Both the position numbers and the translations under genes were made by a program. The notes beneath the pieces are model-generated. The model searched no databases, was not told the origin of the DNA, and saw nothing but the letters and a program-made list of their open reading frames with translations. DNA of 62,571 nt, filler included, from Squatina squatina (lineage: Eukaryota): NCBI GenBank assembly GCA_031763465.1. It is 3 parts of 3 records of this genome, joined end to end, with 100 filler letters (N's around TTAATTAATTAA, not from the genome) between each part and the next. Parts side by side here need not be neighbours in the genome. Positions count along the whole stretch, not along the records: positions 1 to 21,719 come from JARFOE010000013.1; 2 more parts are not named here. The stretch is one strand, 5' to 3'. Positions 6,661 to 21,719 of the stretch are shown in pieces; the stretch's first letter is position 1; the number at the start of each line of letters is the position of its first letter.

Positions 6661-6806
6661 TTTTCTTTAGGTCTATCCTTGGTATACCTTCCCTGATGAT
6701 TCTTCTAGTCCCAGACATTGCACTCCCTTGTAAGAACAGAAACTTAAATATGACAGAAGTATTGAATGATTTCCAGTACGTCATATTTCAAGACTTGCAA
6801 AACTTG
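6661..6806 (+). CDS. IL7: Interleukin-7 exon 2 (signal peptide and start of helix A)
   Basis: cag|TT TTC TTT AGG ... AAC TTG|gtaagg; 146 nt, phase 1 to 0. Encodes (V)FFRSILGIPSLMILLVPDIALPCKNRNLNMTEVLNDFQYVIFQDLQNL, which parallels mammalian IL7 exon 2 (V)[23 protein letters not shown]...SIDQLL. It is tail-to-tail with ZC2HC1A, as in tetrapods. Confidence 0.85.
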
Positions 6807-7602: not shown

Positions 7603-7792
7603 TCAAAGGGTCACCCTTCTCACTCCACATTCACAACAGAACTTTGCGCACTCCACAGGATACTTGGTTCCACATTCATGACAAAATCTCGGTAGTTGTT
7701 GACCAGCTGAACTTCTAGCATTGCCTTTCATGATCCCATCATTGAAACTCAGGGAATGATCCCTGATGTCTAAACCAGATTTCATACTGTTC
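7603..7792 (-). CDS. ZC2HC1A: Zinc finger C2HC domain-containing protein 1A, last coding exon
   Basis: tttccag| acceptor; ends [30 protein letters not shown], matching the ZC2HC1A C-terminus ([30 protein letters not shown]). Confidence 0.95.
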
Positions 7793-9306: not shown

Positions 9307-9445
9307 CTGGATCATATAAAGGTGGAGGTGGTGGTGGGGGGGTCCCCCCTTCCTTCACTGTTGAAATCTTTTTGGCCGCTCTGATGGTAGCAATAAAATT
9401 TTCATGTTTTCTTCTCCAGTTTGAGGGTTTTTTGGGAGGTTCAAG
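9307..9445 (-). CDS. ZC2HC1A: ZC2HC1A internal exon
   Basis: tttag|...CCAG|gtatgg; 139 nt. Encodes LEPPKKPSNWRRKHENFIATIRAAKKISTVKEGGTPPPPPPPLYDP, matching ZC2HC1A PEPPKKPSNWRRKHEEFIATIRAAK...PPPPPPSYDP. Absent from the supplied ORF track. Confidence 0.95.
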
Positions 9446-9771: not shown

Positions 9772-11086
9772 CACTGACTAATCCTGATCCTGTGAATTGA
9801 AAGACTTATAAAAAATATTTTCCATGTTCTCGGGATCACAATTACATAAGGATTGTTTTTAATTGTTTCAAACAAAAGATGAACATTTCAAAATATGAAA
9901 TGACACTAAAAAGACATACAAAAGTGAGCAGGATATCTGGTATTCAACTTGCTCAAAATTGAACAGAGCAATAATACTGACACATTTTACACATTACATG
10001 AGAGAAATCGTAAAAATGCAAGGTTCATTGTTGATAAACAATGCACTTCAAGACATTTTGAGACTTCAACTGGTTCTCAACTAATCTAGGAGTGCATAAT
10101 TCTTGCAAATTGTATCCTTTCATTCATCACCTCTTAACCAATAAGCATGTATTAAGAAAGGTCCAGTATGAAGCTTCCTCCCAATAGTTTAACAATGGTT
10201 ATTTAGATAATAGTGCAAAGCTTTATTTATTCCACAGATATTAGCATATCTGACTACTGGATTTTGAAAATGATCAACAATTAGAAATGTTATAAGAACA
10301 ATTAATACTGTGCATCATACCGATACATTTCACAATAAAACTGGCAGTGCAAGATTAACTGACACACTTAAATTTGAAAACAGTAAATGTGGTTAATCTT
10401 TACCAATACTTTAGTAAAATTATATTTCAGAATCTTGAATGGTTGACTGATAGAAAAGAAATACACAAAATGTATCAAAGGTTATAAAGCTCTAAAAGTA
10501 CATAATGTTTGCTTAGATCATGGAAAAAGGTCATTATTATTTAAGTCTGGAACAGTGATGTACGTTTTCATGGTAAGTTTGTTGGAAAAGCAACATATTT
10601 ACTTCATCCTTCACTGACTACTAATTCAGTGAAAAGCTCACAATTTTGCAGCAAGATTATGAATAGAAATAATAAGGAATTTAGTTAAAATATACAAGCT
10701 TTCAACATATTACAGGTAAAAATTAATCTTTTTTGAGAAAGCTAGAATTTAATTGAAAATCTGATTATCTACTCTTTAAAAATGTAGTTTACGATAAACA
10801 GGTGATTTTAATGACTGATTTTTTTGTAGTGAGCAGAATGAGGGAGGGCTGAGAAAGTTTGTACTGAGGAAAATAAATGTTGGAATTCAGTAATTTTAAA
10901 TGCTCCAGTCTTTTCCCCAGTCTTTGTATGTCTATTTAAGGATTAGAATATAAAGTATTGCAACATCCACCTTTGCAATTAATTTGAGTTGGAAATTCCA
11001 GGCATGGGCTTATTAATAATTGCAGATAATTTCAACAATCTTTTTACCAATGCACCTAAATCCTTTGCCCATGCTGTATCATGTAC

Positions 11087-11167
11087 ACTAAGGAAGGAAA
11101 ATAAATATTGGAATTATAAACTAATATAGAAAATTAATAATTCCAATATTTATTTTCCTTCCTTAGT
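11087..11167. repeat. Perfect 31-bp inverted repeat with a 19-nt loop
   Basis: actaaggaaggaaaataaatattggaattat (11087-11117) is the exact reverse complement of 11137-11167. Confidence 0.95.
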
Positions 11168-11639
11168 CAGATCACTTTGCTCTTGCTCACATTGAATTTA
11201 ATTTGCCATTACTCAACCCAACATCCTAATTTAACTGGATCTCTCTCCCCCGATCAGCCTGCTCTTGATTATTGACAACTTCCCTCCTTCTCACCTCAGG
11301 AAATGCTGACAGTTTTACCTCTAGCTATCTATCCCCTTTTCCAAATGATTGCTATCCAGCATGCCTCAGTACTGACCCATGGGTCACTAGAGTAGTTACT
11401 TCACATCACTGCGACACAGCTCTATGTGTAACGCCCTCAGTCTCCTTTGATGTCGGCAGTTGTCAAACCATTTCAATAACTGCCCACAAGAGTTGCCAAC
11501 CCTCCAGGATAGCCTTGGCATTTCCAGGAATTAACAATTAATTTCCAGGACACTGCTGTGAGCAAACTTGGGAGAAAATCTTTGAGGTATTCAAACAAAT
11601 TGAGTTTTTTTTCAAATTTTCTTTGAACAACAACAATAA

Positions 11640-11876
11640 CAAGTTACTGTTGCACTGCAGCAACTTGCCAAGGCTTCTTCAGCAGCACCTCCCAAACCCA
11701 CGACCTCTACCATCTAGAAATACAAGGGCAGCAGACGCATGGGAACAGCACCACCTCCAAGTTTTCCTCCATGTCACACACCATCCTGACTTGGAAATAT
11801 ATCGCCGTTCCTTCGTCGTCACTGGGTCAAAATCCTGGAACTCCCTCCCTAACAGCACTGTGGGAGTTCCTTCACC
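11640..11876 (+). mobile_element. LINE 3' fragment (common shark family)
   Basis: cttcagcagcacctcccaaaccc...aaatcctggaactccctccctaacagcactgtggg. Related pieces occur at 21515-21719 (-) and 33018-33110 (+). Confidence 0.7.
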
Positions 11877-13049
11877 NNNNNNNNNNNNNNNNNNNNNNNN
11901 NNNNNNNNNNNNNNNNNNNNNNNNNNNNNNNNNNNNNNNNNNNNNNNNNNNNNNNNNNNNNNNNNNNNNNNNNNNNAATGTTTCAGATTACAAGATGATC
12001 ATTTTTAATATTTGAACCATCATGGACAATGGTCAGTTCTTTCAATACAACTTCCTTCTTTCCACAAACTCTGGTGCCGATAAAGAATGAATATTTTACA
12101 GATTAATAAAGTAAACATTTATACTTGAGTTGAACCGGGTTATCTGCATCTCTGGAAATGCTGAGCTTTTAATTGTGACAGCTACACTGAATCCAAATTA
12201 TAAATATGGTAAACTACAGGGATGAGTGTGCCTAGAGGCTGACTCTTCATGAAACTCAATGCAAATGCTTGGTGAATTTCATATTTCAGTAATCCAATGA
12301 AAATTCTTTACAACACCAACTATTTTAAAGCAAATCTTTACAAACAGCTACTGCAAGCACCTAGCAGGTCAGTTATATTACAAAGGTTCTATCTTTTCAA
12401 CTATATTTGACCAAAGACACTCTCTAGTTGACACGCGTTCAAGTAAACAATGTTGAGTGCACACAGGCATCAGTGATGCACTGTCTCTGGTCACTTCCAA
12501 AAATCAAATGAAAACCATTTCAGGATTCCTAACTATAGGGCTTTGGTCAGGGCACCTATTGTCCTCTATGGATCACTGAATCTTTTTCAAAAATGTGATA
12601 GGATCCTCTGTCTTGGATATTGACACACTGTAAAGACTGACAACTAGAGCAGATACTTGATCTGTTCTATCATCCTCCTAAAGCTAATCGTGGATGTAAC
12701 TGACCCATATATCACATTTTCTTTAATTGTTCAGTTCAACAACTCTTCAACCATTGAGAAAGAGGAAGGTAGAGTTCATTTTGTGTGTTGTAATATATTC
12801 AGTCCACAAAAGTCCATTTGCTGAGTGCCAATCTTCTAAGATACTCATTTTCCAATTTCTTAACTTTCCTCTGTGTACAATCTCTGATGACTTTAGGAAA
12901 CAAAAGANNNNNNNNNNNNNNNNNNNNNNNNNNNNNNNNNNNNNNNNNNNNNNNNNNNNNNNNNNNNNNNNNNNNNNNNNNNNNNNNNNNNNNNNNNNNN
13001 NNNNNNNCAATTATGCCGCCAGCTCGCAAGGCTCAATCATTCAATTTAT

Positions 13050-17895: not shown

Positions 17896-18086
17896 ATTCC
17901 AGGATTCTGCGAGTTTGGATATAATGCACAATTCACTGAAGTTAACCCTGTGATCTGCAGAGTGTTGGTTGGTTACAAGTCTGTGTATCGTATCTGCTTT
18001 GGAATGGGCACTTTCTTTCTGCTGTTAGCTCTGCTTATGATCAATGTGAGAAATAGCAAGGATCCCAGGGCCCTAGTACATAATGG
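17896..18086 (+). CDS. SERINC: Serine incorporator (SERINC1/3-like) internal exon
   Basis: ttcag|ATT...AAT GG|gtaag; 191 nt. Encodes [63 protein letters not shown], carrying the SERINC motifs IPGFCE, GYKxVYR and SKDPRAxxHNG. Confidence 0.95.
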
Positions 18087-18661
18087 GTAAGTTTTTTGTA
18101 AATTGTTTTTGAAAGAAATTCTGTGGCATAAACAAGTTTATAATCACTGCATTCATCTTAAAAAATATATATACTTTTAATGATAAGGACCAAGTTTAAA
18201 AAATCATGCTCTTGACAGAGACCCTTGCCTGCTTGTGGCACATACTGGAAATTGCAATTCTCGATCTGAGCTCATGGATGACGAGGCTCTATTCCAGGAG
18301 TGGGAATTGGTTTTTTAAAAAAGAAATCAGCCTATACTGCATTTTAATTAAGCTAGCTTTCTTCAAGACAATATGATGTATATCAGACTTTAAAACATTT
18401 GTATTTTAAAACTGTTTTTTTCATTCTTTACTCTTATGGATACCAAACAACTCTTAATATTAAAAAGCAAATTAATTTTGTATAAAATTAAAATATGTAT
18501 AAATTGTCTTTAAAGTAACACAATGGTTTCTTTGATTTTATTTAGAATGAAATGAAATTATAAAACATAGATAAAATCTTTCAGGCTGCATAAGAAGGAA
18601 TACAGTAGATACTATAGAGAAATTTAAGACTTACGGTGCCATTAACATTCTCTTTTCAAAG

Positions 18662-18741
18662 CTTCTGGTTATTCAAGTTTGGAGCACTTGTAGCAATAAT
18701 GGTCGGTGTATTTTATATCCCCGAAGGACACTTCAGCCGAG
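18662..18741 (+). CDS. SERINC: SERINC1/3-like next exon
   Basis: caaag|C TTC TGG...CGA G|gtaagt; phase 2 start is compatible with the preceding exon. Encodes (G)FWLFKFGALVAIMVGVFYIPEGHFSR. Confidence 0.93.
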
Positions 18742-20265
18742 GTAAGTGAGAAATTGGCAGCGTTGCCCACTTTAAGTGGACTTAAAAGGACNNNNNNNNN
18801 NTTTTAAACACCTTTACATTCATTATTTGAAATCAAAGCATGCTGCTAGAACTAATGTTACAATGTGCCAATAACTCTCTGTCGGAACGTTACAAATCAA
18901 TAAGTAACTTACAATATAGGTTATGATTGCACTTCTAAGAAATATTTATGTTTCGCAAAGGTGACATCATAATGGAAAACAGACCGTACTTTGACAAAAG
19001 CATTTTGTAATGACATCAAATCAAATAATGTTTAATATTTGTACTTAATTTTTATCATTTTAATTACTTATATGTGGCAGAAATAGAAAATATGATTCAG
19101 AGCTATGCTACTCAATTTATAATCATTTAATTTGTCATCCTAACTCACAATTTTGTATTTGGCCAACCCAATCATGGGATAGAAATTGCATCCCACAGCT
19201 CCTCAGTATGTATTGTTTATTAACTTACAGGCTTTCAATTTGCCAGAAAGCCATATGTAACAACCATACTATAAAATTTAAAAAACAGCTTATTGATAAA
19301 CATCTATTCCCCACAATTGCTCATGGGTTTTGCTGATCTTCAGCCGTACTTCCAGTAGGAGACCGACAGAATCCCCAGGAAAATGGCAGAGTCCTGGTCT
19401 CTGCTTATTCCAGGAGTTTGCCAGTTGCCTTTTAAAGGGCAAAGCCTCCATCTATCTCTTACAAATGACAGTCAGTGGCTGGAGTCAGGGCAGGGATTTC
19501 TTACCCTTGGAGTTCTTGTTCCTTAGGTTGGACGGGGCCCAAGCATATCAGTGGAGTTCGGTACACTGAGTGTGATGTTGTGTATTGGTTTCCACAAGTG
19601 TGGAAGTGGGGCCCCACCAATGAGATATAGGCAACTGGCCTGGACCTCCAAAGATGAGACTTAAAAAAAAATCTCTTACAGATTAGTGCCCTTGCTCAGG
19701 ATGCTGAGGGAACCATGGCTGGGTCGGGGAGCTGGGCAACCCCCAAGATGGGCAGGCACTGGAGTTACCTTTCTTGGGAAGGTGGATGCTAGAATTGTGC
19801 CAGAAGTGGTGCCTGTGACATGTATTCCTTTGAAATAAAATGCCCTCACGCTGACTGTTGGGATTGCAAACTGAGGAATCTCAGGGCCCTAGTATAGAAG
19901 TCCAGTACCAGTACATCAGAACATTAGAATTCTGAAAATCTGCAAGGGTGATAAATTCTGGTGTGAGTACTGAGTGCACCACGTGGGATCTCTTCTCATC
20001 CTGCTGAAGTTTGTGGGATCAAGGATTAGTCCCATTATACATGCCAGTAGCAGGCACCTGTGTAAAATGGCTGAATCTAGAATGCCCTCATTTGTAAATT
20101 GCCNNNNNNNNNNNNNNNNNNNNNNNNNNNNNNNNNNNNNNNNNNNNNNNNNNNNNNNNNNNNNNNNNNNNNNNNNNNNNNNNNNNNNNNNNNNNNNNNN
20201 NNNCATATTCTAGAAGGTTTAAGGTAGTTGATGGTAGCTTTCTTGCATTCCATATACAGTCATAG

Positions 20266-20413
20266 TCCTGATTTTAAAAGTGTATCAAGCAGTTGGATTG
20301 CGGTATGGATGAAGATTGCCTCCAGCTGGGTCTGCAGTTCCCTTTACATCTGGACACTTTTGGCTCCTCTGGTTCTTTCCAAGCAAGATGATTTTGAAGA
20401 ACACACAAACTAA
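20266..20413 (+). CDS. SERINC: SERINC1/3-like last coding exon
   Basis: catag|T CCT GAT (an in-frame alternative acceptor gives a start at 20260). Encodes PDFKSVSSSWIAVWMKIASSWVCSSLYIWTLLAPLVLSKQDDFEEHTN*, the SERINC C-terminal WxAVWxKIxSSW...LYxWTLxAP motif. Confidence 0.93.
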
Positions 20414-21719
20414 GAATGAAGTGAAGTGGGAGATAACAGCATGGGAAAGGAGTTTATTTTCTCACCCCTGAGATACTTCCTGAACCATATCTTCATAACT
20501 AACAATTTTACACTAATCTAAATGAAATGTGCATTTTCAATCTGTTATTAATTGTTGTGGCCAAAGAATTTGTGTCAGTTGTTAACGGAAAATAATTGCA
20601 GGAACTAATAATTTAACCATGGGTAACCAGCTGGTTGGACAGCTGACAAACCATGTGATCCTCAATTGTGAGGACTAAACATTCAGTCATTTGTGAGATA
20701 GCAATATACCAGCATTGGCATATACAGTTGGAAAGATCATTCTAAGAGAATACAAAAAATTATAAACCAAGCACAGAAATTGTGAAAACGATTAATAGAT
20801 TGATAATCGTACTTAGTCATTATGGCCATTACTCGTTCTGAGGTTCTTATTACCAACCCTAGCTTTGCTCAGGTCTGTAATAATCCCTTCAGGGTCTGTA
20901 ATAACCATAATCCCTCCTGAAATGATGATGTTATCCAATATAGAATGCAATAAAATATAAAGATGATTATTACTCATTCCAATGCTCTTAGATCATTGAA
21001 TAGCAATATTATTATAGCTTGCTCATTATTCCATGTCATTATCATAAAGATACTTGAATTTAACTATAAGTATTGTTGAACAAAAAATCAATAAAGTCTG
21101 TTAATAATGACCTATAAATTCAAAGTTGACAGATGCAATTGTGAGTTTCAACACTGGTACATGTATTGTTAATCGCCATAATCAGAATATATTTCTAACT
21201 TCTACCTTGAGTAGGATCAGCGGTGAAAGTCCAAATTAGGAATGCTTGTGATTTTTGTGTATAATGTTGTCCAGCTCTCAGTATATCCACGGAAGTATAT
21301 CGTAGCAAGAACATTATAAGCATTATTTACTAAACCCTGTTGCTTATTGTATGTTCTAGGAAAGTAGAACATTGGAGTTGATATTGTTGCAACTGCATTG
21401 GAATGTCGAGTAGCAAACTGCAGAGCTTACATAGCAAAAGATTCTCTTACAGCACAACATAGAGAGCAGGTGCGCAATAACTTATCTGCCAATAGTGCTT
21501 TTCATTTATAATTGATTCTCAGGATGTGGGTGTCACTGGCAGGGGCAGTATTTATTGTTCATCCCTAGTCGTCCTGAGAAGATGATGGGCTTTCTTCTTG
21601 AATTGTTTTGACCCAGCAACAATTAAGGAACGGTGACATATGTCCAAGTCAGCATGGTGTGTGACTTGGAGGGGAATTTGGAGGTGTTGGTGTTCCTATG
21701 CACCTGCTACCCTTGTCAT

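Follow-up and report, generated by a model that had tools for sequence, protein, structure and literature searches.

An intact SERINC1/2/3-class gene in Squatina squatina, likely the fourth 2R copy at the human-8q21 segment and a predicted ten-helix phospholipid flipper

The analysed window is a stretch of 62,571 nucleotides joined from three parts of the Squatina squatina genome, the first of which (G000:C13:6534073–6555791) consists of 0.3–3 kb contigs with 100-N gaps between them. The features below lie in this first part; X1 denotes a sequencing run of a related shark species, by guess of RNA.

6661–6806, plus strand: IL7-like exon (signal-peptide-like stretch), AG/GT ends, named by resemblance
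7603–7792, minus strand: ZC2HC1A-like last coding exon (C-terminal cysteine motif), weak double-zinc-ribbon match (E 0.31)
9307–9445, minus strand: ZC2HC1A-like internal exon, named by resemblance and its place in the gene order, no library match
9882–10691 and 11977–12907, minus strand (putative): two non-coding blocks, both bridged by one 2403-nt X1 contig
17896–18086, plus strand: SERINC exon (first extracellular loop and TM2), AG/GT ends, 191 nt, phase 0 to 2
18662–18741, plus strand: SERINC exon (TM3), AG/GT ends, 80 nt, phase 2 to 1
18742–20259, plus strand: interval in which the absent middle exons must fall (777 nt together), assembly gaps at 18792–18801 and 20104–20203
20260–20413, plus strand: last coding SERINC exon (TM10 and C-terminal tail), AG acceptor, stop TAA at 20411–20413
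20414–21605, plus strand: 3' untranslated region, AATAAA at 20949 and 21090, X1 contigs at 20256–21061 and 21033–21605

The three placed SERINC exons contain no internal stops and match the Pfam Serinc profile with E-values of 1.5e-14, 4.3e-4 and 3e-13 (in order), which assigns the gene to the SERINC family (PF03348). The first (90–95 % identity to six elasmobranch proteins) corresponds to about residues 67–130 and the second to about residues 131–157 of the catshark orthologue P0001, while the C-terminal tail is 5 residues longer than in SERINC1–3. Residues ~158–416 (catshark numbering) are absent from the C13 scaffold, and a search of the assembly for the first two SERINC exons (residues 1–66) found neither. 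Two of the missing middle exons are present, intact and stop-free, on the unplaced contigs C531995 and C807632, bringing the exons in the assembly to five (three placed, two unplaced). One X1 contig of 1993 nt spans all three placed exons and separates the second from the last by 777 letters; these 259 codons equal the missing portion of the catshark orthologue. The earlier note had described an intact-looking SERINC with three exons: the absence of stops stands, and the exons have AG/GT ends and Pfam matches, but the gene is partial here and just the first two placed exons are adjacent. The loop and acidic-tail peptides named there are both present in the exons. The SERINC is a real, intact gene of the SERINC1/2/3 class.

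The minus-strand exons at 9307–9445 and 7603–7792 are taken here to be ZC2HC1A, and the piece at 6661–6806 is presumably IL7; profile searches for IL7 and ZC2HC1A gave no match to the exons of the stretch. No X1 sequence covered these exons, a blank to which no weight is given. Of the previously proposed common block with ZC2HC1A and IL7, the exon-like pieces on the same scaffold remain, with names given by resemblance and position. The proposed orientation was borne out, SERINC (plus) being transcribed away from the ZC2HC1A-like exons (minus). PKIA exons had been reported as absent from the window, which held; no PKI coding exon was detected in 200 kb of C13 (40 % N) either, nor in the examined parts of C13, C162 and C73 (40–68 % N). 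The two non-coding blocks (9882–12907) are inferred to represent the PKIA 3' untranslated region, since they sit at the expected place, are bridged by one X1 contig and have a minus-strand ATTAAA just beyond their end (9863–9858). The new SERINC is quite probably arranged head-to-head with PKIA. As to the suggestion that PKIA lies between ZC2HC1A and SERINC, little-skate gene identifiers put pkia beside zc2hc1a, but in the present assembly the adjacency is an inferred one. Two unplaced PKI exons, L054 (C474302) and L056 (C351424), could not be assigned to a gene; L054 shares 67 % identity over 36 residues with the PKI on C4, which may point to a second gene of PKIB type and conceivably to a fourth ohnologue among the PKIs, and L056 carries RRDA where the other two PKI exons have the RRNA pseudosubstrate.

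A profile search of the same genome yielded 25 Serinc matches among 33 candidates. Four genomic copies of an exon homologous to 17896–18086 exist, namely on C4 (SERINC1-type), C162 (SERINC3-type), C234 (most divergent, which we take to be SERINC5-type) and C13, and SERINC2-type exons are located on C73 (one) and on unplaced contigs. Two divergent Serinc exons on unplaced contigs, L029 (C38198) and L030 (C732676), are presumably SERINC4. Searching with the exon protein gave 27 matches among 92 candidates; the best six are elasmobranch proteins termed "serine incorporator 1-like" (90–95 % identity), followed by Callorhinchus (71 %) and then by SERINC3 and others (at most 63 %). Cluster look-ups revealed orthologues in at least 22 cartilaginous-fish species (at least 12 sharks, at least 9 batoids and Callorhinchus), full-length in many of them, and the named members of the lineage are all chondrichthyan among the matches listed. 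SERINC1, 2 and 3 occur alongside the new gene in 5 of the 21 aligned species that have it, the other species being sampled in part. Together with the four loci of the homologous exon, this shows that neither SERINC1 nor SERINC3 has its sole orthologue in this gene, an outcome that the earlier note had named as fatal to its reading, and that separate SERINC1, 2 and 3 exist.

The proposed retention in sharks and loss in mammals holds but is too narrow: the gene also occurs in rays and a chimaera, and is missing from the chicken and three teleost gene lists checked as well as from the human one. Any claim of loss in bony vertebrates is bounded by the homologue search, which covered the best 120 of 1447 matches. 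Two high-scoring Acipenser proteins (P0028, P0033) proved to be internally repeated models resembling SERINC3 and SERINC1 rather than the new lineage. Identity between shark and ray is 87 % for the new SERINC versus 94, 82 and 81 % for SERINC1, 2 and 3, respectively, indicating that it is constrained. Among gnathostome paralogues it is closest to SERINC3 (57 %, catshark), followed by SERINC1 (56 %) and SERINC2 (51 %).

Phylogenetic trees were calculated from 83 rows (quick) and subsequently 36 rows (careful), picked from ~490 proteins with omission of SERINC4/5, isoforms and most teleosts; a gar protein carrying the name SERC1 grouped with SERINC3 and was given a new label. In the 36-row tree the new chondrichthyan sequences form a clade of their own (95/96*), as does SERINC3 of sharks and bony vertebrates (96/95*), and the former is sister to all gnathostome SERINC3 (89/88), with cyclostomes branching next. 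The earlier note had called for a phylogeny with SERINC1–5; the trees with SERINC1–3 gave the new gene a separate position. Its stem branch is long (0.7). Alternative placements were rejected marginally by AU tests, the p-values being uncorrected and five of six falling between 0.02 and 0.05: nested with chondrichthyan SERINC3 (p = 0.040), grouped with SERINC1 (p = 0.047), grouped with SERINC2 (p = 0.0085) or originating before the vertebrate copies (p = 0.029). With invertebrate outgroups (no named amphioxus or tunicate row), SERINC2 is basal, the AU test for a SERINC1+2 clade gives p = 0.035, and the symmetric ((1,2),(3,new)) shape is absent; without them, the SERINC1+2 clade was recovered in the 83-row tree at 93 SH-aLRT. 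Tree and AU tests, with their marginal p-values, date the duplication to the interval from the divergence of the invertebrates to that of sharks and bony fishes. Because the AU tests are marginal and uncorrected, the tree alone is no proof of a 2R origin.

Comparison of 392 further proteins yielded 24 that scored best against the new lineage; 21 are at least 90 % identical to chondrichthyan rows, and three are fragments at 45–55 % identity (P0339, P0401, P0435). These three, partial and long-branched, join the new lineage at 100/99* outside the chondrichthyan clade (36-row tree), and grouping P0401 with Callorhinchus gave an AU p-value of 0.023. Without the three fragments the sister grouping with SERINC3 has 88/84 and is otherwise unchanged. 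They share 8 of 20 (P0339), 3 of 17 (P0401) and 6 of 19 (P0435) derived states with the lineage and retain 7, 8 and 6 ancestral states, respectively. The nearest cluster of P0339 is labelled "commonest Chordata" (Atlas). Judged from these sequences, the fragments may be non-chondrichthyan orthologues.

Along C13, a stathmin exon (minus, 6.496 Mb) is followed by the ZC2HC1A-like exons (minus), SERINC (plus), a PEX2-like gene (Pex2-family match in a single 350-residue frame, plus, 6.659 Mb) and, further on, NKAIN (8.6 Mb). We take this order to be that of human 8q21 reversed, with SERINC in the PEX2–PKIA interval. Four NKAIN loci are placed (C13, C4, C162, C203); C4 harbours FABP, PKI and SERINC1, the latter two head-to-head, and on C162 SERINC3 and stathmin are ~95 kb apart. 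Separately, the open frame that encloses an NKAIN match at C162:4738547–4738747 (G000) runs to 2573 residues and is thereby longer than is usual for an exon of NKAIN.

Linkage from the stretch alone is weak evidence, since it is composed of short contigs joined by 100-N gaps, and the gap-ridden C13 scaffold may be reference-guided. SERINC has been analysed within the chicken 2/3/20/23 paralogon, published as fourfold (PMC2865548); in Table S2 of that study, SERINC is empty in the chicken-2/human-8 columns for 7 of 7 bony vertebrate species, and NKAIN3 and STMN2 occupy the chicken-2 column in chicken. Synteny of IL7 and ZC2HC1A is stated from sharks to humans (PMC6936713). Gene identifiers of the little skate run hey1, stmn2, zc2hc1a, pkia and LOC116972014, with zfhx4 four identifiers on (PMC9605692, supplement 2; assembly scaffolded on thorny skate). 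By its position after pkia, LOC116972014 is a mere candidate for the new SERINC; its log2 fold change in motor neurons of the skate fin is 6.9, which at a p-value of 0.008 (0.14 after adjustment) is not significant. No result refuted linkage to the ZC2HC1A/PKIA region, and the skate gene order and the empty slot in Table S2 echo it. The new SERINC thus sits, with the caveat of scaffold quality, on the fourth paralogous segment (chicken 2/human 8q), and this synteny carries more weight for its origin than the tree.

Taken together, the separate clade, the co-occurrence with SERINC1–3, the empty paralogon slot and the skate order support the fourth-ohnologue reading advanced in the earlier note: a 2R origin of the new SERINC is very probable, as a likely sister ohnologue of SERINC3 judged from the sequence comparisons. 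SERINC1, 2 and 3 have been grouped as ohnologues before (PMC8316019). The gene resembles other retained ohnologues in being a fourth 2R paralogon copy with fast early evolution that is missing in model species. Retention of an ohnologue by cartilaginous fishes, with loss from most bony vertebrates, is a known pattern. A duplicate of SERINC3 that arose in the cartilaginous-fish stem, was relocated and, evolving fast, was pulled out of the SERINC3 clade appears improbable. It would agree with SERINC3 being the best paralogue by identity (57 % versus 56 and 51 %), with the long stem, with the named members all being chondrichthyan among the matches listed, and with the marginal AU rejection (p 0.040); however, such a copy would have had to land in the sole empty paralogon slot, beside the PKIA position, and the three divergent fragments group with the lineage outside the chondrichthyan clade (P0401 with Callorhinchus, p 0.023).

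Still less probable is an old segmental or single-gene duplicate from the gnathostome or vertebrate stem that owes nothing to whole-genome doubling. Against it stand the copies of NKAIN, stathmin and PKI found alongside the SERINC loci and the published fourfold paralogon that the region forms (PMC2865548); in its favour, the rooted tree lacks the symmetric 2R shape and a paper cited in PMC10085909 reads these paralogons as segmental duplications. That the gene is a decaying or mis-scaffolded remnant, or plain SERINC1, 2 or 3 of Squatina squatina, as five exons (three placed, two unplaced) and a gappy scaffold might suggest, is largely refuted: the exons are stop-free, an X1 contig from a relative joins the three placed ones, many species have full-length orthologues, and the other paralogues have exons of their own. 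The overall reading, held with high confidence, is accordingly that of an intact SERINC1/2/3-class gene, likely the fourth 2R copy (human 8q21), encoding a predicted ten-helix phospholipid flipper.

Modelled with AlphaFold, the catshark orthologue P0001 (pTM 0.75) matches human SERINC3 7RU6 with a TM score of 0.92 by target (rmsd 2.3, Foldseek E 1.9e-20), and human SERINC3 and fly TMS1d are the sole structure matches at E < 0.001. The model displays ten helices in two bundles with a long cross helix (153–195). Since SERINC1–3 were part of the underlying alignment, the fold similarity is partly built in; the new protein is predicted to be a ten-helix membrane protein of SERINC fold. With SERINC3 it shares the Pfam Serinc family, the boundaries of homologous exons, the predicted fold and a stathmin on the scaffold; with SERINC1 and 2 it shares the class but neither clade nor locus.

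Of 206 conserved columns (at least 90 % conserved in SERINC1–3 and cyclostomes), 36 are changed in the new lineage, versus 1 of 168 in SERINC1, 11 of 188 in SERINC2 and 5 of 182 in SERINC3, for which the backgrounds include the new lineage. A divergent first loop had been highlighted for this gene; the peptide is there, but more of the divergence is found in conserved motifs of the core. Compared with SERINC3, Ala-His in the long cross helix is replaced by Gly-Asn, a one-residue deletion and a new Cys precede TM7, five cysteines are new, intracellular loop 4 is rewritten, the N-terminus is different and the acidic tail is longer. In the fly protein, W140, K143, F177 and Q181 are described as pocket and cleft residues (bioRxiv 2021.01.08.425964). 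All 21 rows of the new SERINC preserve the pocket residues W and K as well as the F plug; the Q181 position is Glu in 13 of 21 rows (sharks, chimaera), and batoids retain Gln. Yeast Ice2p also has Glu at the cleft position (bioRxiv 2021.01.08.425964).

The new protein would flip phospholipids between leaflets without ATP. Such lipid flipping appears probable by analogy, since human SERINC2, 3 and 5 flip lipids in proteoliposomes independently of ATP (PMC10359404). Substitutions in the long cross helix and the loops may alter specificity or trafficking, a possibility somewhat short of an even chance; early change followed by constraint suggests such a shift in specificity or location. Antiretroviral activity, considered from the paralogues, is rather doubtful: human SERINC2 flips lipids in liposomes without restricting HIV-1 (PMC10359404), so that membership in the SERINC family does not predict restriction. 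Antiviral activity differs between SERINC paralogues and species (PMC8316019), coelacanth SERINC2 restricting and human SERINC2 not (PMC8316019 and preprint). SERINC1 is myristoylated in a cell-free assay (PMC3817238); the N-terminus of the new SERINC differs from that of SERINC1, and one might guess that this modification has been lost.

The new SERINC is genuine and adds a member to a known family, for which five mammalian members are described (PMC10085909). No description of a fourth SERINC1/2/3-class gene was found among the full-text matches listed ("serinc6" gave 0 matches), and a prior mention is possible. The elephant-shark supplement contains no SERINC entry (PMC3964593), and the four Serinc rows in the supplement of a second skate paper do not identify the new gene (PMC10115646). 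Its orthologues are already in databases under the automatic name "serine incorporator 1-like". Surprise is therefore moderate, the gene being auto-annotated and shark retention of a fourth ohnologue familiar; it occupies the only vacant slot of a fourfold paralogon already published and makes the SERINC1/2/3 quartet complete. The antiviral differences among SERINC paralogues lack an understood cause, and fish orthologues are informative in this respect, as is coelacanth SERINC2 (PMC8316019). Naturally occurring and conserved, yet altered at otherwise near-invariant positions, the new SERINC represents a ready reagent for structure–function tests.

A bolder and, on balance, unlikely reading is that of a sixth, pan-gnathostome SERINC, which would have acquired a new function early, come under strong constraint in cartilaginous fishes and persisted as the divergent bony-vertebrate copies P0339, P0401 and P0435. 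Remodelling of the cleft, the cross helix and a trafficking loop, which belongs to that reading, is equally speculative. If true, it would overturn the count of "five SERINCs in tetrapods", and lipid flipping and antiviral activity could be separated with a naturally occurring variant.

Two further observations lie elsewhere in the window. In its third part, exon-like frames on the minus strand at 55507–55962 and 59063–59467 resemble an MCM helicase subunit, presumably MCM3, in its C-terminal part. The segment 16783–17527 (minus strand) contains open frames of 183 and 86 residues with no Pfam match and is GC-richer than its flanks; several short X1 contigs match it, and it is likely a repeat element.
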